The notes below the pieces were generated by a model, which had not been told where the DNA came from, made no database searches, and saw only the letters and a list, made by a program, of their open reading frames with translations. Source: an uncultured Bacillota bacterium (GTDB lineage: Bacteria > Sysuimicrobiota > Sysuimicrobiia > Sysuimicrobiales > Segetimicrobiaceae). From it: DNA of 64,000 nt. The position numbers and the translations under genes are program-made. Location of the stretch: assembly GCA_963804645.1 (NCBI GenBank), contig CAWDRG010000009.1:640001-704000 (forward strand), in the 5' to 3' direction. Shown here piece by piece: positions 55,682 through 64,000 of the stretch (its first letter is position 1; every line of letters starts with the position of its first letter).

Positions 55682-55773
55682 GGAGGGGTGCGAGAGCTCG
55701 GCTGAATCGGGCGGTCTCGAAAACCGCTAGGCGGGCAACTGCCTCGGGGGTTCAAATCCCTCCCCCTCCGCCA
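55682..55773 (+). tRNA. tRNA-Ser (anticodon CGA)
   Basis: GGAGGGG/CCCCTCC acceptor stem, GCGGT-CTCGAAA-ACCGC anticodon arm, long variable arm, GGTTCAAATCC, encoded GCCA; TAGAAT just upstream. Confidence 0.96.
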
Positions 55774-55967
55774 ACGACCCATGAGTGCCATGGGTCGGCG
55801 CACAGGCTTATCGTCCGAGCTGAAGCGCGTCCCGCTGGAGAAATTGCCGCCGTGTACTACATTGTACTGCGTTGTACCATGTACTTTAGACGACGGAAGA
55901 ACCAACCCGTTTTATTATCAGGTCCGCCGTGTTCGTCCAGCGGAGTGCGTCGATGACTTGATCCTGA

Positions 55968-56378
55968 CTACCGCGGTTGTACGTCGATCGGGGGCCCACT
56001 CACGTGCATCTGATCGCGGATTCGGCCCGCAAACTCTGCCGCTCCGTAGCAGCGGAACTTGAACTCCGTGCCGTCGCGTAGCGCCACGGTCACGACGCGC
56101 GTGCCGATTCCGAAGCGATCAGTAACCGACGTAATGTCCGCCAGGGGTACGCGACGGCTCATATTGTCTTTGTGAACGAATCGGTTCATTGCATTCGGTC
56201 GGAAATCGAGACAATCTGGCAAGAGATACATGGTGCCACCGACCCATAAGCCCCTATAGTTTGCCTTGAAAAATTTAAGAGCGATCTTTACTTCCGCGTC
56301 CATTGGAAATCCCAACTCAGCGGATTTGATGAGAGCGTTTACTATCTTTTTGGCAACAATGTTTGCTGGCTCCTCCAT
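55968..56378 (-). CDS. Hypothetical protein, possible PH/GRAM-like fold
   Basis: ATG 56378 after GGAGGTGA; GGTMYL..L.F.P and VPLADITSV pattern; AT-richer codons. Confidence 0.65.
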   Translation of the reverse strand: MEEPANIVAKKIVNALIKSAELGFPMDAEVKIALKFFKANYRGLWVGGTMYLLPDCLDFRPNAMNRFVHKDNMSRRVPLADITSVTDRFGIGTRVVTVALRDGTEFKFRCYGAAEFAGRIRDQMHVSGPPIDVQPR

Positions 56379-56490
56379 GAATTGTTCACCTCCGTCATCT
56401 ATGTTAGGCACACCATGATTTGCAAGCAATAGGCGCGGTGGAGGACCGGCTCGCGCCCTTGACCATGGAACGTATGCTTGCCGTGATGAG

Positions 56491-56525
56491 CTGCCTCGCG
56501 GAGTTCACATCCTTCCCCTTCGCCA
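56491..56525 (+). repeat. Degenerate copy of the tRNA-Ser 3' end (att-like)
   Basis: CTGCCTCGCGGAGTTCACATCCTTCCCCTTCGCCA versus tRNA CTGCCTCGGGGGTTCAAATCCCTCCCCCTCCGCCA. Confidence 0.75.
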
Positions 56526-56601
56526 AGAACCCATGAAAGACATGGGTGCGCACGCAGCGCCTCTTGTCCGACTCCGATCGCTTCTCGCGCGAACACTCCG
56601 A

Positions 56602-56748
56602 CCATGGTAACCGCTTGTACTACTCCGTTTCGCTATGGCAGGCCGCCGCGCGGACTCGGACGGATGCCCATTTCGTGACGCGGACGTGATCTGGACCGGC
56701 ATGGGGCGCGCGCCCGATATCCTGGTGGCTGTGGGGAGCGTATTCTTT
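56602..56748 (+). repeat. Conserved non-coding block, copy A
   Basis: Hand alignment to 58105-58251: about 11 mismatches and 1 indel over the first ~140 nt. Confidence 0.9.
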
Positions 56749-56761
56749 GAATTGAGGAGAG

Positions 56762-57844
56762 ATGTCAAAACCTGCAGGGGGATGTGCCGTGTCGACTTAC
56801 GTCACCGTCCCGATCGACGAGAATGGCATCATTTCCGATTTATACCTCCCGTCAATTATCTCCGAGTCAACGCACGACCCGTTCCGATTTTCCGATGTGT
56901 TCGTCTACTCGCACGGTTGGTGGACCAATGCCGCGCAGGCCATGACGGACTATAACCACTTCGTCGTGGATCTCACAAGATGTCTCCTGCAGATAGCTCC
57001 GGCGCCGCCGTCCGATCTCGCCCTCCCCCGGTCGTCATTTCCGATTGCGCTCCATTGGCCGTCTATGATTAGCGAGGACCCAGGTTCTCTTGCGAACGCT
57101 GCGGAACTCGCGACCTTTTTCTCAATGGGGAAGCGCGCCGACGTTGTCGGCCAACATGGGGTATCATCGCTCGTGAGAATGCTCTACAACGACTGGAACC
57201 CGCCGACGTCGGACATGAAGTTGCGCCTCAACTTGATCGGGCACAGCTTTGGCTGCCGTGTGGTATGTTCCGGGTTGGCCACGGCGCTCACGACGATTGC
57301 TCAGGAGCAGCGCCGACTTCCCCAGTCAATCCAGTTGAGAGTGGTACTGCTTGCGCCGGCCTTCAACAGCGATGAGCTCCAACATGACCAGGATTACGCT
57401 GCGCTCACCGAACCGGAATTGGACCTGCGCATCCTGGCAACCCGTTCCGACGGGGACACATCGCTCTGCACGTGGTATCCGCGGGCCGAAGCGCTGAATT
57501 TCTTCGCAAAGGAGCCCGTGACGGCGTTGGGCGGCGCAGGTCCGAGCGCACAGACTCTTTCTGACTTTGCCTCAAGCGGTACCGGTATTTCGGTGGGCCC
57601 CGGGTTTACGTATAAAGGGGTCGTCACGAACACCGAGCGCCTCGTCGTCGCAGATCTCAGCGCATTGCATGCCGCGAACCCCGATCATGTGACGAGCAAG
57701 TTCGCCGGCCATCACTCCGACATTTACTACAACGAGATTTACGAGCTGATCGCGGGATTTCTGTTCACGCGTTATCCGTTGGGGGTCGCGCCGCCTCCGG
57801 AATCACGCACCCCTGTTTTAGAATCGCCGGTGACCGCTCGGTAA
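56762..57844 (+). CDS. Alpha/beta hydrolase
   Basis: VYSHGW, LHWPS, IGHSFG nucleophile elbow, GHHSDI; GAGGAG RBS. Confidence 0.8.
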   Translation: MSKPAGGCAVSTYVTVPIDENGIISDLYLPSIISESTHDPFRFSDVFVYSHGWWTNAAQAMTDYNHFVVDLTRCLLQIAPAPPSDLALPRSSFPIALHWPSMISEDPGSLANAAELATFFSMGKRADVVGQHGVSSLVRMLYNDWNPPTSDMKLRLNLIGHSFGCRVVCSGLATALTTIAQEQRRLPQSIQLRVVLLAPAFNSDELQHDQDYAALTEPELDLRILATRSDGDTSLCTWYPRAEALNFFAKEPVTALGGAGPSAQTLSDFASSGTGISVGPGFTYKGVVTNTERLVVADLSALHAANPDHVTSKFAGHHSDIYYNEIYELIAGFLFTRYPLGVAPPPESRTPVLESPVTAR

Positions 57845-57973
57845 GCGGGCGCGCCGACAAGCCCCGAGATGCTCGGCGAACGGGACGGCTCGAAGGTGTA
57901 AATTCAATCGCCGGGCCAGAATGTCGAGGACGTTCCGCGAGGTCAATCAAACTGGCACAGCTATGGCGGGCGC

Positions 57974-58028
57974 AAAACTGCTAGGAGGGTAACTGCCTCC
58001 GGGGGTTCAAATTCCTCCCCTTCCGCCA
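57974..58028 (+). repeat. Degenerate copy of the tRNA-Ser 3' half (att-like)
   Basis: Matches 55720-55773 with 5 mismatches and 1 insertion by hand count. Confidence 0.9.
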
Positions 58029-58104
58029 ATGCCCCATCAACGACATGGGTCGGCACACAAGCGTGCCCGTTTGATTCGAACCGCGTCTTACCCGAGAACT
58101 GCGG

Positions 58105-58251
58105 CCATGGTAACCGCTTGTCCTGCTTCGCTTCGTTATGGCAGGCCGCCGCGCGGACTCGGACGGATGCCCCACTTCCTGACGCGGACGTGATCTGGAA
58201 CGGCATGGGGCGCGCGCCTGATACCCTGGCGGCTGTGGGGAGCTATTATTT
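58105..58251 (+). repeat. Conserved non-coding block, copy B
   Basis: Direct repeat of 56602-56748 at the same 1503-nt offset as the tRNA fragments. Confidence 0.9.
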
Positions 58252-58357
58252 AACTTTTGCACGAAATCGATCAGTAGGTGAAAGGTACAGCCGCGGGACG
58301 AGAGCCGGAAAACGTCGAGGGGCGCATCGCAGTAGGCTTTGGGGAGGTGAACCTACA

Positions 58358-60200
58358 ATGGGCGAGCCGGGTGGAAGCTCAGGGGCACCTGATTACGTGA
58401 TCCGGCCGCCTGCTGCATTTCGGCCGGAATGTCCATCAAACTATTGGTGCGACGGAACCGTTAGATCTAACGCCTGCTGCGGGTAGTGGACTGCTCCTCT
58501 CGGTCGGTGCCCGCAGGGTGTGGGTCCGGGGAATATGTTCCTCTCGATCGGTGCCCTGCTTGTTTTGAGTGCGGGCATTGGGCTCGCCCTCTCGATTCTC
58601 ATTGCGGTGATCTTCCGCAAGTATGCGACGCCTGAGCATGCCGTCGCTGACAGCTTCAGTGAGTTTCACACACGCCTGAGCCAGCTGCAAGGTCAGTTCT
58701 CGAGCGATTGCGCCAATCCGGTGGTGCCAAGCGGTGGCTCAGCCGACGCGGCCCGGAGAGAGGTAGGCGAACACCTGCATAGCATCAACAAAGAGCTTCG
58801 TCGGAACGGGCTGCCGTGGGTAAGGGGGACAGGCTATATTAGCCTCTGGGAACGCCTGCACCGTGCCGAAGAAGCCCTCATCGAATTTCAGCCTTCGGGG
58901 GCGGTCGTCGCGGGGGCGATCCTGACGCGCAGCGGCTTCGCGGTTCAAAAATTCCACGCTGCGAAGACGTGATCAAGCAACTGGGGCAGGCTGTCGAGGC
59001 CATTGATCCGTCCGCTCGGAAATACCTTTTTGATCCTCCCACAGCGGCTCTGCCACTAGTCATCAAGAGCCAGCGCAGGCTGGACGACGCAATTGTCGGT
59101 GTCACGTGGTTTAGAAGCTCTCGCGGCGAGCGGGGGCACGCCCCCGTACCATTGGACGTCCGACGACGCGACGCTGCCGCAGTGGGCAATGCTGAGCGAT
59201 ACGGGCGTGGTGGGCGGCACGCCGCCACGGCAGACGGTGGGGCCATGCGGATTTACTGCTCGCGTGACGGATAGCGCCAGCGTGACGGCCACCAAAGATT
59301 TTGCTCTAACTGTCCGCGAGCTGGAGAATGCGACGCTGCTCGATGCGACGTTGGAAGGGCGTACAAGGGAGTCGGGAATCAGCAAGCGGCGTCCGCATAC
59401 ACGAGTGGTCTGATCAAAACTCCTTGCAAGGCGGAGTGGGACTTGCGCGAGAGGGCGTGCTGACCGGCGCGCCGGCGACTGCCGGGATGCTTCGCGTTTC
59501 GGCGCGGGTCGAAAGCGAAGGGCAAGAGATCACCGAAGATGTCACATTAGTTGTGAAGACTCCAGCGGATCGGATTGGTGACAGTGACGCAGATCGAGGC
59601 ACATTGGCGCGGGGTGTGTTGCGCACTGTTCGCCTCGTCATCGATGAGTTCGCGACCAAAACTGGAACGCGATCGTGCTCGCCCGCAATCGCCTCGCGGA
59701 ACTCATGTTTCTCACGGGACTGCTTGGGTACGCGTTACTCGCGATTGCCATCGGGGTGAAGGCGCAACGGAACTCGAAATTGGCTGCTGCAGCGGTTTTC
59801 TATCTGGCTGGTGCGACAACGGGGCTGCTCAGCCGACTGTACAGTGAGTCCCAAGGATAACGCGGTCGTCGGGAGCATTGATCGGACTATGGTCTTGTGC
59901 CGATGCGGGTCTGACATGCTGGTAGTGTCCGGTTTGGCGGCAATTTTCGGTGTGGTGTTGGTGGCGATGCTGCCGCAAGCTGTGAGTGCGTTCACGAGCG
60001 CGGTTGGGGCGGTGGTAACGCGACCCAGCATGCCGTCGTTGGCAGATATTCTCGATCTCGAAGGGCACCTCGCTTACATCATTGTGGCGGCGGTTTTTGG
60101 CCTGACTCCAGGCTGTTCTTTAACCGGCTCAGGGCCTGGCCGACACTTTTCAAGAAGGATTTGAAATCCACCAGCGCCCATCAGAACGAGGCGTCGATGC
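58358..60200 (+). pseudogene. Multiply frameshifted membrane protein with Ig-like (He_PIG-type) repeats
   Basis: GGGGAGGTGA RBS; fragments in successive frames: TM segment, ASGGTPPYHW...FTARVTDS Ig-like repeat, C-terminal TM segments; end approximate. Confidence 0.6.
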
Positions 60201-60797
60201 GGCAGGGGCGTCGGTGTGGGGCGCCAGGGTTCAACGGCGGCCCTTCACCATCGCGGAATAGATTACGCGTTGATCCTTTCCGAGTGTAGGATGTGATTAT
60301 ATCGTTCAGTATGCCCCCCCACATAATATGGGATTTTGAATGCTCTGCCAAAAAAAGGATAGTTTTGAATTTTTCCGTCGAAGAAATGTTCGATCACCAA
60401 GCGGTAAGCGCTCGGTGCCTACCGCCATGTGCCGACGGTCCACACTGACACCCGCCGGACTGCGGCGGATGACGGTACTCGCTGCGCGGCTGTGCTTCCG
60501 GATCGAGGGAACGGGGGGCAGTCAAATGCGGCGTGGCTGGATGCTGACGGTGCTGATCCTCGGTTGCGTGTAAGGTGTCGACGGCACCATCGCTGGCTGA
60601 AATCACCGGCATGCTCCGCCTGATTAAAGCGTCCACGTTGGCGGATACTTTGGAAGAACAGGGATTTGATGGTCTGAAGATGAAGCCGCAGCGCGGCGGC
60701 GCTGCCATCTCGCGGCGAGGACAGGTGCAGCGTCGCAAGCGGGCGGCAGACAGTTGACGACGTAGTCAATGCAACCCTCCGCGAGGGGGGCGTGGAA

Positions 60798-61581
60798 ATG
60801 GGGACGCGGCTGCAAGGGAAGGTGGCCCTTATCACCCGGGCATCTCAGGGAATGGGACGCACCGCGGCGATCTGTTCGCGAAGAAGGGGCGCGTGTCGCG
60901 ATCGTCGACGTGGACGAGGCGCAGGGCGTCGAGGTCGCCGGCATCATCACCTCCGCCGGCGGGGAGGCGCTGTTGGTCCGCGCGGACGTCAGCGACGCCG
61001 GGCAGGCCCGCGCGGCCGCCGATGCGACCGTCGCCCGGTTCGGCCGCCTCGACGTGCTCTTCAACAACGCGGCCGTCCGCGCGAACGGCGCGCTCCACGA
61101 AATGTCCGAGGAAGACTGGGATCGCGTCGTCGCCGTCAACCTCCGAGGCGTGTTCCTAATGTCCAAGTTCGCCATCCCGTATATGATGAAGCAGGGAGGC
61201 GGCTCGATCATCAACATGTCGTCGGCTGTAGCGTTCGTCGCCATGGAGCGGCGGGCGGCGTATATTGCGACGAAAGGCGCCGTGCTGGCGCTCACGCGCG
61301 CGATGGCGACGGACTACGCGGACCACCACATCCCCGTGAACGCGTTGTGCCCCGGGACCGTGGCGACACCGCGTCTGGTCGCGTCCCTCCGGCCGCCGGG
61401 CGCCGGGGCGCAGGCAACATACTGCCGGTCATCTACACGTCAGGGGACGCTGGCCCGGCCGGATGAACTTGAGGCCGCGGCGCTGTTTCTGGCTTCCGAC
61501 GACTCCAGCTTCATGACGGGCGCCCCGCTGAACGTCGACGGCGGGTTCATCGCTGGCCGGCGGGCGTGGCCGGCCCAATGA
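60798..61581 (+). pseudogene. Short-chain dehydrogenase, frameshift near 60875
   Basis: LQGKVALIT in one frame; EEGARVAIVD, NNAA, YIATK, VDGG in another. Confidence 0.8.
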
Positions 61582-61951: not shown

Positions 61952-62587
61952 CTAGCCGTTCCAGCGTGAGGTCGCACAAGAATTAACAACCAGCGTCGCG
62001 GAGGAGAAATCATTGGTCCGTGTGTGCGCGGTTGGAACGGCGACCACTGGCATTCCAGCATCTCGGGCAGCTAGCACGCCTTTTTCCGCGTCCTCCAGCA
62101 CCACACATCTGGCAGGCTCCGCCCCGAGATGTTGAACGGTATGAAGAAACACATCGGGATAGGGTTTGGCGCGCGGGACACTTTCTCTGGTCGCAATCAC
62201 GTCAAACACACTTGCAGCACCGATCTTGCGAAGCACGGGGTCGACATCCACCCGAAACGCAGACGTGGCCAGCGCGAGGCGCACGTGTGACCGCAGGGCG
62301 TCAATCAGTTCGAGCGCACACGGCATCGGTTGCAGTTCGGCCTCCAGCAGCGTCGAATAGTAAATCAGCTTGCGTCCTCTCAGCACCTCTGGGTCGCGTC
62401 GGACGCCACGGGCGCGTAGGTAACTCGATGCCACCGGCGCTCGGATCGACAACGCATATCATCAACCGAGCGGCATGCCAATTTCTGCGAGCGTGTCTAG
62501 CCAAGACCGGTAACGCAGGCCTTCCGTGTCAACGAGAAGTCCGTCAAGGTCGAAAATAACGGCCTGCAGCGCTGCCGCGGATGGCAT
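61952..62587 (-). pseudogene. HAD family phosphatase, disrupted
   Basis: Manual translation from 62587 gives AVIFDLDGLLVDTE then a stop near 62460; ATS, KPYPD, LED motifs follow in the 61952-62452 ORF. Confidence 0.78.
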
Positions 62588-62592
62588 GATCG

Positions 62593-63334
62593 TTAGCGGT
62601 ACCCGCCGTAGATCGCGTGTCCGGCATACATCCAGAAACAGTCAACGATCTGGAATCCGACTTCGCGTAGCCAGTCCAACTGGTCGACGAGGCGAGACGG
62701 CTGATCCACCGGATCCGGCACATCCAGCCGGTAGTGGTTCCAGCGATCATCTCCAAACCCATCGCGCGCGCGCGCATCGCCGAACCTGCGCAGGCTCCGC
62801 TCTTGGACCGCCTCGTCCCACTGCGAAGCAAAGAGACGCGCCACATGAGGCGTCGCCGCCTCGACGAGATCAGCGACGAGGAGCGCGCCCCCGGGCTCCA
62901 AGCGCGCGGCCAAATCCGCGAACAGACGCCGTTTCTCAGGCCCAGGGATATGGTGAATCGCAAGCGAGGAGATCACACACCGCAACGATACCGGAAGAGT
63001 GGCCCGCCAATCGTCGGTACTGTGAGCAACATCTGCGTGCTGCACACGTCGCCGAAGATCCGAGCAACCGCCGCTCTCGCTCCAGCATCACGTCGGAACC
63101 GTCGAACGCGAGCACCTGGCACCGGGGAAATCGCTCGAGCATCTCCTTAGCAAACGTCCCATCGCCCGCAGCGAGCTCGACGATCGTGAACGTTTCGTCA
63201 GCGTCAGCCGGGATCAGGTCGAGAAGAACGCGCCGCTGCTCTTCGCGTGCAGGAACGTACCCGTCGCCGATCTCGGCGAATCGCTCAGAGTCGGCTTCAG
63301 TCCAGCGCGACGGATCGCCGGGATTGCGTAACAT
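62593..63334 (-). pseudogene. Class I SAM-dependent methyltransferase, frameshift near 63045
   Basis: VELAAGDG and FDGS in one frame; SSLAIHH, LEPGG in another. Confidence 0.78.
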
Positions 63335-63445
63335 GATCTCGGCAAAATTCGCGATTGTCAGTGATTGCTCCCGCTCTACCAACGGTAGAGGGTGCCACAC
63401 AAGTGTTTGCTGAAATGATACATGCCGTTCGCTGAACGTTCGCTG

Positions 63446-63840
63446 GCGTGCCCAGAGAACGGGACGCCATGAAAGGAGGTGGGTTTTCGGAACGAGGCGA
63501 TCTCGTGCAAGCTCGTGTTCGCCTACCGGTGGAAGTCCGGTCCGGGTAAGCGCCAGGGCGCCCGGTAGCAGGCTCCTGGTGCGAGGTGGAAACGCCTGGC
63601 ACTGAAGCGGAGCGTCGAAGGCCTGAAGTCGAGGAAGCGACCGCTCAGCCCGTAACATGACGTGAATCCTGCCGCCTCGTGAAGTTAACCCCGCAAGGGG
63701 ACCAGAGGGAGCCGAGTCGGGTAGTTCGCGACGAAGGCCATGGAAAGCGTGAAGCGCTTGGAGATGCAGCGCTGAAGGACCCTCCGGGGTATGGGGAGCG
63801 GGATGAGCGGAAGGTGGACACGGGAACTGGGGACACCCGC
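63446..63840 (+). mobile_element. Probable group II intron 5' fragment (domain I region)
   Basis: GCGTGCCC..GGG start, CCGGTGGAAGTCCGG hairpin, GAGCCGAG..CGAAGGC and GGGAACTGGGGACACCC resemble bacterial group II intron domain I; no RT or domain V seen. Confidence 0.6.
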
Positions 63841-64000
63841 CCCCCGGGTGACGGACCGTTTCCGGCCGTTGTACTTCTCCCCGGCTGTGACGGGAGCTTC
63901 GACACGATCAACGAACACTACTTGGCGCTCTTTCAGCAACAAGGGTACGTCGTACTCGCGCTTGATGTGCACGGGTCGAGACACGTCTGCCCAAACTTGT
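63841..64000 (+). CDS. Dienelactone hydrolase-like fragment, runs off the window
   Basis: Manual translation PPGDGPFPAVVLLPGCDGSFDTINEHYLALFQQQGYVVLALDVHGSR. Confidence 0.65.

Follow-up and report, generated by a model that had tools for sequence, protein, structure and literature searches.

Integrase-free units stacked at a tRNA-Ser(CGA) gene as probable remnants of serial integration and decay

The tRNA-Ser(CGA) Anchor and Its Displaced Copies

We analysed a stretch of 64,000 nucleotides (hereafter referred to as the window) from an uncultured bacterium of a poorly known peat lineage. ARAGORN calls a single tRNA in it, an intact tRNA-Ser(CGA) on the plus strand at 55682–55773, which is the only tRNA-Ser(cga) gene of the genome and forms the attL-like anchor of an array of displaced tRNA ends. 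Directly 3' of the tRNA lies a plus-strand hairpin, GACCCATG-AGTG-CCATGGGTC (55776–55796, from sequence and alignments), degenerate versions of which also follow copies 2–4, and ~80–110 nt beyond the tRNA end there are four direct TGTAC repeats on the plus strand (55853–55884) with a spacing of 10, 10 and 7 nt. A genome-wide scan for at least 3 TGTAC/GTACA within 45 nt listed 90 clusters, of which no other combines four same-strand repeats with a position beside a tRNA end; the repeats are candidate protein-binding (arm-type) sites, a role proposed from their sequence.

When the tRNA is aligned with those of seven relatives, positions 1 to ~46 match all of them, whereas the variable and T arms differ from five (G002, G005, G016, G018 and G020). 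The gene is thus chimeric, with a relative-like 5' half and variable and T arms of a different type, which supports the repeated insertion at the tRNA proposed in the first-pass annotation, here with replacement 3' halves brought in from outside. All displaced copies have the G000-type arm and none matches the 3' arm of the same-genus relatives in this alignment, so the original host 3' end is not identified among them.

A repeat search recovers a direct three-copy family at 55745–55807, 56497–56559 (67%) and 58000–58062 (84%), spaced 752 and 1503 nt apart, which reproduces the coordinates of the three direct tRNA 3' ends and the two units first described. With the tRNA-Ser and 57 nt of its flank as the BLAST query and the whole 5.3-Mb genome as the target, copy 2 (76.8% over 82 nt, E 1.7e-7) and copy 3 (82.8% over 99 nt, E 1.6e-20) were recovered together with a fourth copy at C9:704528–704582 (window coordinate 64528–64582; 87% over 55 nt, E 2.3e-12), which starts 528 nt beyond the window end. 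The third unit, initially taken to be open-ended, therefore closes at copy 4, and the tRNA and its copies bound units of 752, 1503 and 6554 nt; a search of the interval between copies 3 and 4 gave no additional tRNA-Ser copy.

The copies are degenerate (identity about 67–87%), with acceptor strands that have lost their match to the tRNA. Copy 2, the tRNA 3' end with T arm and acceptor (56491–56525, plus strand; repeat search, BLAST and alignment), is the most decayed and carries a 1-nt deletion. Copy 3 extends from the anticodon stem-loop as far as the CCA end (57965–58028, plus strand; repeat search and BLAST) and begins at tRNA position 29–39, in agreement with the anticodon-loop start noted at first. 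Thus the copies begin inside the tRNA, in the anticodon stem-loop or the variable arm, and the tRNA 5' half has no significant presence in any of them (p 0.13–0.78).

Past the tRNA end, a flank of ~60–95 nt is common to all four copies, and copies 2 and 3 have ~250 nt of downstream flank in common (81% overall, ~93% in a 138-nt core). In this core, conserved block A (56602–56739, plus strand; from the alignment with block B) is ~93% identical to its partner, the non-coding block B (58105–58243, plus strand; repeat search and alignment). Block A ends 23 nt upstream of the unit-2 start codon and is non-coding, since it differs from block B by a 1-nt indel; RNA folding gives no excess of structure (z +0.7 to +2.0), and no Rfam family matches. 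Among 94 genomes of the order it is present in this genome alone, and its 26-nt core had 0 exact matches in the viral and genome collections.

Contents of the Units

The GC content of unit 1 (54.3%), unit 2 (59.3%) and the first part of unit 3 (59.5%) lies 9–14 points below that of the genome (68.6%), which upholds the lower GC initially reported for the units. Their contents are mutually unrelated and gene orientation is mixed, the unit-1 gene being on the minus strand and that of unit 2 on the plus strand.

Unit 1 (55774–56490; 752 nt between successive copy ends, delimited by repeat search and composition) holds an intact minus-strand gene (55968–56378, from translation) for a 136-aa protein. 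Eight homologues, most of 132–136 aa, occur among 5.8 billion clusters, no Pfam or NCBIfam family matches, and the AlphaFold model (pLDDT 65) gives Foldseek matches to PH domains (best E 8e-7); the protein belongs to a rare family with a predicted PH/GRAM-like fold. It is not a recombinase. Unit 2 carries a plus-strand gene (56762–57844, Pfam) for a 360-aa alpha/beta-hydrolase-like protein, whose match to DUF900 is marginal (PF05990, E 1.1e-4, 22.2 bits where the cut-off is 20.5) and which is full length relative to its homologues (open frames of 340–350 aa in G012 and G005). Both units thus consist of one intact low-GC gene apiece with short, defined ends.

Unit 3 is a multi-gene, eroded block, so that the initial description of one gene per unit holds for units 1 and 2 and fails here. 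What was taken for an Ig-repeat membrane protein gene is a pseudogene, derived from a gene for a membrane protein bearing a He_PIG (Ig-like) domain (58559–60214, plus strand; Pfam and tblastn), with an in-frame TGA at 58970–58972, a second in-frame stop at 59411–59413 that closes the open frame, and frame changes near 59900–59920 and 60113. The domain was assigned by Pfam on one fragment of this region, and tblastn places homologues of 439–806 aa on its frames 3, 1 and 3. The unit also contains a short-chain dehydrogenase gene of host-like GC (60769–61581, plus strand; Pfam adh_short_C2, E 1.5e-58, and composition), a HAD-hydrolase fragment covering only profile positions 68–178 of 178 (61952–62452, minus strand; Pfam), and a gene of a multi-copy family with a weak methyltransferase match (62936–63658, minus strand; Pfam and genome search), the upstream end of which is spanned by a 400-nt stretch (63446–63843) with ~6 paralogous copies elsewhere in the genome (69–74% identity). 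A truncated peptidase S9-like alpha/beta hydrolase (63679–64000, plus strand; Pfam profile positions 5–81 of 213) extends to 64257, beyond the window end, and is followed by copy 4.

Recombinases and Displaced tRNA Ends in the Genome

A Pfam scan of 32 ORFs gave no integrase gene in the array, PF00589 (tyrosine recombinase) had no match in C9:695–705 kb even at E ≤ 10, and PF00239 (serine recombinase) had none on the array contig, so the initial statement that the array is integrase-free stands. No intact tRNA-type integrase and no cognate enzyme for the tRNA-Ser site were found in the assembled genome. Its three full-length tyrosine recombinases are weak Xer-like matches away from tRNAs, none of them near the array, and they reach 35–58 bits with integron-integrase models whose cut-offs are at least 265. 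The genome is a metagenome bin, and assembly often misses elements that carry integrases and vary between strains, so that the integrase counts are biased towards low values. A whole-genome search found no unit of the array elsewhere, and contig-level reads gave no joints at the tRNA-Ser copies.

Displaced tRNA 3' ends number at least 46 in the genome, which has 51 tRNAs, and the nested pattern occurs at ~20 different tRNAs. The intervals below 40 kb number 38, with a median of 3.5 kb (9 below 1.5 kb and 18 below 3 kb). Recombinase matches occur in units of at least 10 kb, at tRNA-Pro(tgg) (25.6 kb), tRNA-Met (21.5 kb) and tRNA-Arg(tcg) (10 kb), and among the other units only as an 83–122-aa fragment adjoining tRNA-Pro(cgg). 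Many cargo genes of the other arrays are split or truncated, and IS copies and pseudogenes are frequent. The tRNA-Thr array has near-exact repeats, e.g., a 1170-nt unit with an aldo-keto reductase only, and its flanks share nothing past the tRNA part; a conserved flank past the tRNA end is found in four arrays. An APH-like gene (86%) is common to two arrays at different tRNAs, and a sulfatase unit at tRNA-Ala(tgc) is tandemly duplicated as a whole (98.9% identity over 3.6 kb).

The Site in Relatives and Strain B

Between the same SBP-tRNA and FMN-reductase flanks, G002 and G005 have Usp/HxlR/NIPSNAP/GGDEF genes; in G005 there is also a separate 3-kb islet without an integrase that ends in a partial copy. 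Five relatives have an assembly reaching 2 kb or more past the tRNA, and one of them shows such a partial copy; the contigs of G003, G007 and G020 end within the tRNA or less than 600 nt after it. In strain B (L069/L079), a near-identical metagenome lineage, unit 3 is absent and a short tRNA-Ser remnant is found instead, which means that array content varies between lineages; the differing content in G002, G005 and strain B likewise makes the tRNA-Ser site a variable one. Strain B matches unit 2 at 96.4% over 56755–57851 (L069) and 97.6% over 56755–57007 (L079), and this homology ends 7 nt beyond the gene on each side, reaching neither the att-like copies nor the conserved block. In the comparison of the locus across relatives suggested by the first-pass annotation, content does differ, but the sequence shared with strain B ends at gene edges and not at the repeats.

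In five same-genus genomes, 15 stretches were picked around PF00589 matches, and in 11 of them the match lies no more than ~720 nt from a tRNA gene or tRNA fragment; ~9 of these 11 matches are fragments (low profile coverage, short open frames). A unit-1 homologue in another genus (G017, 81% nucleotide identity) sits in a tRNA-Gln island, with a 93-aa C-terminal integrase fragment ~500 nt away, and unit-2 homologues occur in tRNA-Val-bounded regions of G006 and G012/L071. The tRNA-Thr array of G004 has different content, on a contig without a PF00589 match.

Origin of the Array

The array was probably built by serial site-specific integrations and then eroded by deletion, as in CIMEs and tycheposon-type islands. 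At least three successive insertions would have entered the 3' part of tRNA-Ser(CGA), each element bringing its own tRNA 3' part and some flank, and the incoming 3' part would have repaired the tRNA gene and displaced the older end downstream; the chimeric tRNA and the nesting of the direct copies lead us to infer this replacement step. The elements would then have lost their recombination genes and most other content, leaving the PH-like gene, the hydrolase gene and the 6.5-kb eroded block as integrase-less remnants that may now be carried passively. They most likely correspond to what are known as CIMEs (cis-mobilisable elements), or to decayed islands, arrayed in tandem with putative att sites. 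A tyrosine integrase like those adjoining other tRNAs in the genus is the most likely enzyme, although its former presence in the array is something we infer, as no integrase remnant is detected there.

This seems reasonable given the stops and frame changes of the He_PIG gene, the truncated HAD and S9 genes and the 67–87% identity of the copies, all of which indicate erosion, and the genome and genus show a decay series in which integrases give way to fragments and then to none. The usual marks of a tRNA island are an intact near-end tRNA with a 3' direct repeat at the far end, foreign composition with presence or absence among relatives, and an integrase inside the element; the array has all but the last. 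As in CIMEs, attL/attR-like copies are kept, in degenerate form, and integration and transfer genes are absent. It is also important to consider what argues against decay. Units 1 and 2 are each exactly one intact, tightly bounded gene, which random deletion would not yield unless selection kept the gene, and the 138-nt block is ~93% conserved against ~70% in the adjacent tRNA-like parts, which hints at constraint or recent exchange beyond simple decay. Also on this side are the missing integrase remnant, the lack of a displaced copy with the relatives' 3' arm, and the low bias of integrase counts in a metagenome bin.

The units could instead be minimal non-autonomous cassettes, an att site plus one gene, moved in trans by the integrases of transient elements in an integron-like or dif-module-like economy, with the 138-nt block and TGTAC repeats as arm sites. 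The single intact genes of units 1 and 2, the many small intervals, the near-exact repeats of the tRNA-Thr array, the conserved flank in four arrays, the shared APH-like gene and the G004 array, with its different content and a contig lacking a PF00589 match, all point this way, but we consider it unlikely: the tRNA-Ser copies are degenerate with mismatched acceptor strands, no unit recurs in the genome, the three full-length recombinases are Xer-like and distant from tRNAs, strain B homology to unit 2 stops at gene edges, the flanks in the near-exact tRNA-Thr array share only the tRNA part, and the arrays are rich in pseudogenes and IS copies. Extended to the genome, such a scheme would make miniature cassettes at tRNA-derived sites generally captured, shuffled and lost via trans-acting integrases of transient elements, a chromosomal multi-site analogue of integrons if true; we regard this as quite improbable. 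That wider proposal cites the 46 displaced ends, the ~20 tRNAs and the roughly half of intervals below 3.5 kb, and takes the tRNA-Ser 138-nt block and phased TGTAC repeats as arm-type binding sites.

A homologous rather than site-specific origin, by RecA-type single crossover of circular or linear DNA carrying a tRNA 3' part and flank, or by local unequal crossing-over that duplicated this stretch with the gaps filled later, appears less probable still. The common stretch is long by att-core standards (60–95 nt in all copies, 250 nt in copies 2–3) and the sulfatase unit is an evident tandem duplicate, but copies that begin inside the tRNA follow the usual tyrosine-integrase pattern, unit contents are unrelated, the nested pattern recurs at ~20 tRNAs, and integrase genes or fragments adjoin tRNAs in the genus. 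The first-pass annotation had favoured an undescribed integron-like system driven in trans and named eroded tandem islands as its alternative. The degenerate repeats, the pseudogenised unit 3, the lack of unit recurrence and of an assembled intact tRNA-type integrase, the gene-edge limits in strain B, the visible decay series and the earlier description of stacked integrase-less att-flanked units as CIMEs speak against the former, and the latter fits better.

Relation to Known Systems

Serial integration and decay has close precedents in the literature cited here. CIMEs of ICESt1-type elements in Streptococcus thermophilus are described as att-flanked units at the 3' end of a target gene that lack integration and transfer genes and are stacked by successive site-specific integration, i.e., accretion (PMC5704250), so that stacks of att-flanked units without an integrase at a single site have been described before (PMC5704250, PMC3146451). 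On that account the array is alike in its attL/attR-type direct repeats, missing integration and transfer genes and tandem stacking at the target 3' end, and differs in having single-gene units down to 0.75–1.5 kb, degenerate repeats and no functional partner element, cis mobilisation being putative. In Dehalococcoides, the cited study describes tandem ssrA-specific islands delimited by many direct 3'-end repeats in a highly variable region, 15 of them without an integration module and discussed as possible CIMEs or fixed remnants, with tmRNA as the target, a 20-bp repeat and a CcrB-like serine recombinase in 16 islands (PMC3146451). As there, direct repeats of a small-RNA-gene 3' end bound tandem units; here, however, the target is a tRNA, the copies span 35–64 nt plus flank and the array retains no enzyme. 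For Prochlorococcus tycheposon islands, successive integrations at one tRNA are reported to drive older elements inward, scattered partial tRNAs and fragmented integrases marking the older events (bioRxiv 10.1101/2020.12.28.424599). Successive integration at one tRNA and the partial tRNAs left behind are common to both, whereas the tRNA-Ser array lacks a large tyrosine recombinase and a replication/primase module and belongs to another lineage and habitat than those in this description.

Integron cassettes are often single-gene and integrase-free, lie in one orientation with an attC site at the end of each, and are moved by an enzyme encoded elsewhere. The integron platform adjoining such an array comprises attI, a common promoter and an IntI-type integrase. 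Acinetobacter plasmids carry Xer-dependent dif modules, similarly described as integrase-free, often single-gene units between short recombination sites with the enzyme elsewhere (PMC13141974, PMC7399989, PMC6449649). The earlier cassette proposal would work in this way, with integrase-free and often single-gene units between short sites; the tRNA-Ser separators, as compared with these descriptions, are tRNA-derived and not attC hairpins or XerC/D sites. Unlike in integrons, gene orientation in the array is mixed, and there is no platform integrase or common promoter.

As read here, the array is an ordinary integration scar. It serves mainly as a clean example of tRNA-linked islands shrinking to single genes, and it cautions that tRNA fragments are traces of old events, successive insertion of mobile elements being a known route of genome growth; if such units were shown to move, they would constitute a cassette system without a resident integrase. 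What is worth remembering is the scale, with almost one displaced tRNA end per tRNA gene and very small units in this genome and, again, in a same-genus relative.

Structure of the tRNA-Ser(CGA) Array

The only tRNA gene of the window, tRNA-Ser(CGA) at 55682-55773, is present once in the studied genome (G000; 5.3 Mb, 22 contigs, 51 tRNAs) and heads a direct family made of its own 3' end and flank. A repeat search reproduced exactly the three copies claimed in the first-pass annotation, at 55745-55807, 56497-56559 (67%) and 58000-58062 (84%), with spacings of 752 and 1503 nt. BLAST of the tRNA and flank against the whole genome, the check that annotation had proposed, recovered copy 3 (E = 1.6e-20) and copy 2 (E = 1.7e-7) and added a fourth direct copy (E = 2.3e-12) at 704528-704582 of the same contig (C9), 528 nt past the window end. 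The third unit, formerly thought to be open-ended, is therefore closed at 6554 nt, and no further tRNA-Ser copy was found between copies 3 and 4. Copy 3 starts at the anticodon stem-loop, copies 2 and 4 start in the variable or T arm, and all four have a hairpin in common together with some 60-95 nt of flank, a stretch that extends to about 250 nt between copies 2 and 3. Since the tRNA 5' half is not significant in any displaced copy, we rejected tandem tRNA pseudogenes as their source.

The flank of copies 2 and 3 contains a 138-nt core (block A, 56602-56739, and block B, 58105-58243) that is about 93% identical between the two, with the tRNA-like parts beside it only near 70% identical. A 1-nt indel means that the blocks are not coding, and a structured RNA was discarded as folding is no better than that of shuffled sequences; no Rfam family matched. 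The blocks were found nowhere else in G000 and gave no BLAST match in 93 other genomes of the order (a tally that takes in the unpublished genome G034), and an exact-pattern scan of viral and genome collections with their 26-nt core returned no match. The copy-1 flank has four phased TGTAC repeats instead, and either these or the blocks could be candidate arm sites for a binding protein. The motif GTCCCGCTGG, common to the copy-1 flank and a tRNA-Gln flank in G017 (a different genus), lies beside only 1 of 97 tRNA-end sites of G000 and occurs 50 times genome-wide, so we set it aside as possibly a chance match.

Units 1 and 2 and the first part of unit 3 are poorer in GC than the genome (68.6%), with 54.3% in unit 1, 59.3% in unit 2 and 59.5% in the first 2.4 kb of unit 3. 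The description of one gene per unit is accurate for units 1 and 2 and fails for unit 3, which is multi-gene. Unit 1 holds a minus-strand gene for a 136-aa protein without a match in Pfam or NCBIfam; a search of 5.8 billion clusters puts just 8 members in its family. The protein's AlphaFold model (moderate confidence, pLDDT 65) matches PH domains, and because of this predicted PH-like fold we rejected a hidden recombinase or excisionase. Unit 2 holds a plus-strand gene for a 360-aa hydrolase-like protein with a marginal DUF900 match, full length relative to its homologues. Compared with homologues of 439-806 aa, the He_PIG membrane-protein gene of unit 3 is interrupted by two in-frame stops and shifts frame at least twice; beyond it lie genes for an SDR, a truncated HAD hydrolase and a truncated alpha/beta hydrolase, the last two separated by a member of a multi-copy family. 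The absence of an integrase noted at first pass holds, with no PF00589 match in the array even at E ≤ 10 and no PF00239 match on its contig. A 400-nt stretch at 63446-63843, part of a gene family of roughly 210-250 aa, recurs as about six paralogous copies in other parts of the genome (69-74% identity) and shows very high summed depth among peat metagenome contigs.

Comparison With Relatives and a Near-Identical Lineage

The tRNA itself appears to be chimeric. In an alignment of the G000 tRNA-Ser with those of seven relatives, two of them of the same genus, positions 1 to ~46 agree throughout, and the variable and T arms of G000 are unlike those of five of the seven, both same-genus genomes included. 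The G000-type arm is present in all displaced copies, a pattern expected if incoming elements brought replacement 3' parts; the genus-typical 3' end has no match among the copies. However, a second genus of the family has this arm type as its native one (G011, 97% identical, no common flank), and an exact 39-nt search with the tRNA 3' half gave two native tRNA-Ser genes with neither a common flank nor a partial copy.

In the same-genus genomes G002 and G005 the locus is bordered by the SBP gene and tRNA at one end and by FMN reductase and TonB-receptor genes at the other; Usp, HxlR, NIPSNAP, GNAT and PAS-HD-GAF-GGDEF genes lie in between, and none of the G000 units is present. G005 has its own integrase-less 3-kb islet closed by a partial tRNA-Ser copy; G002 has the HxlR-NIPSNAP part of this islet, where the tRNA-Ser copy is no longer detectable. 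Five relatives have 2 kb or more of assembled sequence beyond the tRNA (G002, G005, G012, G016 and G018), and one of them shows a partial copy; the contigs of G003, G007 and G020 stop within tRNA-Ser or less than 600 nt after it.

A near-identical metagenome lineage, strain B (contigs L069 and L079, overlapping by 324 nt at 100% identity), carries the unit-2 gene at 96.4% (L069) and 97.6% (L079) identity to G000. The homology is confined to 56755-57851, the gene plus 7 nt at either end. Downstream, about 135 unrelated nt lead to a short tRNA-Ser 3' remnant, beyond which the sequence matches the G000 region past copy 4 (73-92% identity), so that strain B lacks unit 3 together with the next 1.2 kb. 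The content of the tRNA-Ser site does differ between the two lineages, and the cross-lineage comparison suggested at first pass bears out variable content; the shared sequence nevertheless stops at gene edges and not at the att-like copies (displaced tRNA 3' ends). Upstream of the gene lies an IS110-family transposase, followed by a segment that matches, at 97% identity, a locus 350 kb distant, and because of both neighbors we rejected cassette movement for the left side in favor of IS-mediated rearrangement. The IS110-family element itself (L079:430-2105) has a 44-nt end matching G000 at C9:1395368 and C20:3624 (89-91%), one of which falls downstream of tRNA-Leu(gag).

Short low-depth contigs from public peat-metagenome sets (X2 records 10 and 11, X1 record 4, X5 record 28) reproduce the order tRNA, unit 1, copy 2. 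One run may be the source sample, and uncovered parts carry no meaning in this comparison. The contigs of sets X1, X2, X4 and X5 show no joint at an att-like copy and are unable to reveal rare excision products. A single peat contig of depth 2.8 skips 117 nt inside block B.

The cargo has relatives in other mobile contexts. The G017 match to the unit-1 gene (81% nucleotide identity) lies downstream of tRNA-Gln(ctg), at a distance of 2.2 kb, and has a 93-aa C-terminal tyrosine integrase fragment some 500 nt away. The unit-2 homologue of G006 lies within a 5.2-kb islet between tRNA-Val(tac) and its partial copy, those of G012 and another metagenome contig (L071) lie 2.1 kb from a tRNA-Val(gac) fragment, and other homologues adjoin IS630-type or IS110-type transposases. 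These neighborhoods mean that the cargo genes travel with tRNA-targeting elements and other mobile DNA.

Origin of the Array

The simplest account, and in our judgment the probable one, is that elements integrated site-specifically at tRNA-Ser(CGA) one after another and later decayed by deletion. Each incoming element would supply a replacement 3' part and then shrink to an integrase-less remnant. The trans-driven cassette system proposed at first pass seems unlikely to us: it draws on the single intact genes of units 1 and 2, the conserved block A/B and the many tiny units genome-wide, but the att-like sites at this locus are degenerate, none of its units is duplicated, no integrase is available to act on them, and the strain B breakpoints fall at gene edges. 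We give little credence to a third, still weaker possibility, in which homologous recombination or local duplication built the array.

The array is real, well delimited and of an already known kind. In the passages cited here, tandem integrase-less att-flanked units are described as CIMEs formed by accretion (PMC5704250), 15 Dehalococcoides ssrA islands lack an integration module (PMC3146451), older tycheposon insertions have left partial tRNAs and integrase fragments strewn through Prochlorococcus islands (10.1101/2020.12.28.424599), and integration-derived tRNA fragments are called pervasive (PMC9897764); dif modules are the closest integrase-free cassette system described (PMC13141974, PMC7399989, PMC6449649).

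Displaced tRNA Ends Across the Genome

Scanning every G000 tRNA against its downstream 40 kb (G000 being the sole genome scanned whole) gave direct partial 3' copies at about 20 tRNAs. A stricter scan found at least 46 displaced 3' ends beside the 51 tRNAs, a lower bound because it misses the degenerate copy 2. The 38 intervals under 40 kb have a median of 3.5 kb, with 9 below 1.5 kb and 18 below 3 kb; of all aspects of the array, only this wealth of tiny units across the genome might reward experiments. Array cargo includes a beta-lactamase-fold protein, an S41 peptidase, an aldo-keto reductase, toxin-antitoxin and arsenic-resistance genes, sulfatases and IS elements, many of the genes split or truncated. 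What different arrays have in common is mostly IS copies, with one APH-like gene (86% identity) besides.

G000 has 11 tyrosine-recombinase matches at E ≤ 0.001, and its three full-length tyrosine recombinases are weak Xer-like matches away from tRNA-end sites. Recombinase matches within arrays sit in 10-25-kb units, namely one at tRNA-Pro(tgg) (a tyrosine fragment and a serine recombinase), a tRNA-Met-type unit (a serine recombinase) and one at tRNA-Arg(tcg) (tyrosine fragments); elsewhere in arrays there is only an adjoining 83-122-aa stub at tRNA-Pro(cgg). We also picked 15 stretches from 40 PF00589 matches in five same-genus genomes, a non-random sample chosen for matches that were short or close to the start of a contig. 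A tRNA gene or fragment is found no more than about 720 nt from the match in 11 of the 15, and of these 11, judged by profile coverage and open-frame length, one is full length and about nine are fragments. G001 provides an example of a full-length integrase next to a tRNA fragment, here of tRNA-Ile. The decay of an integrase, first to a stub and then to complete loss, can thus be followed within the genus.

The tRNA-Thr(tgt) site has other content in G004, with 63 kb between the same flanks that enclose 12 kb in G000, partial copies at +21.6, +22.5 and +36.1 kb, and no PF00589 match on that contig. The G000 array there (C6:87595-99600, L029) consists of the tRNA and five partial or near-full copies (84-100% identical) delimiting units of 3.5, 1.8, 1.17, 1.8 and 3.6 kb, one of which holds only an aldo-keto reductase gene, and no recombinase is present in it. 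In the tRNA-Ala(tgc) array (C9:178065-192802, L032) a sulfatase-bearing unit of 3.6 kb is duplicated in tandem (98.9% identical), and an arsenic-resistance-like unit contains an ACR3/SBF transporter, a low-molecular-weight phosphatase and a methyltransferase. The islet at tRNA-Pro(cgg), integrase stub included, occurs twice, 98-100% identical (C8:110034-113510 and C17:12743-14957), as either a true duplication or one region assembled twice.

Two adjacent same-strand Xer-like tyrosine recombinase genes lie at C15:12800-15950 (L062) with a third weak match 3.5 kb off, a layout that resembles recombinase-in-trio elements. Two full tRNA-Arg(cct) genes 1.1 kb apart surround an APH-like phosphotransferase gene (C9:6376-7591), of which an 86% identical, partly fragmented copy of 881 nt lies just after tRNA-Lys(ttt) (C9:482700-483200; L030, L031). 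ARAGORN reports a 98-nt 'tRNA-???' with a four-base anticodon (ggcg) at C22:22618-22715.
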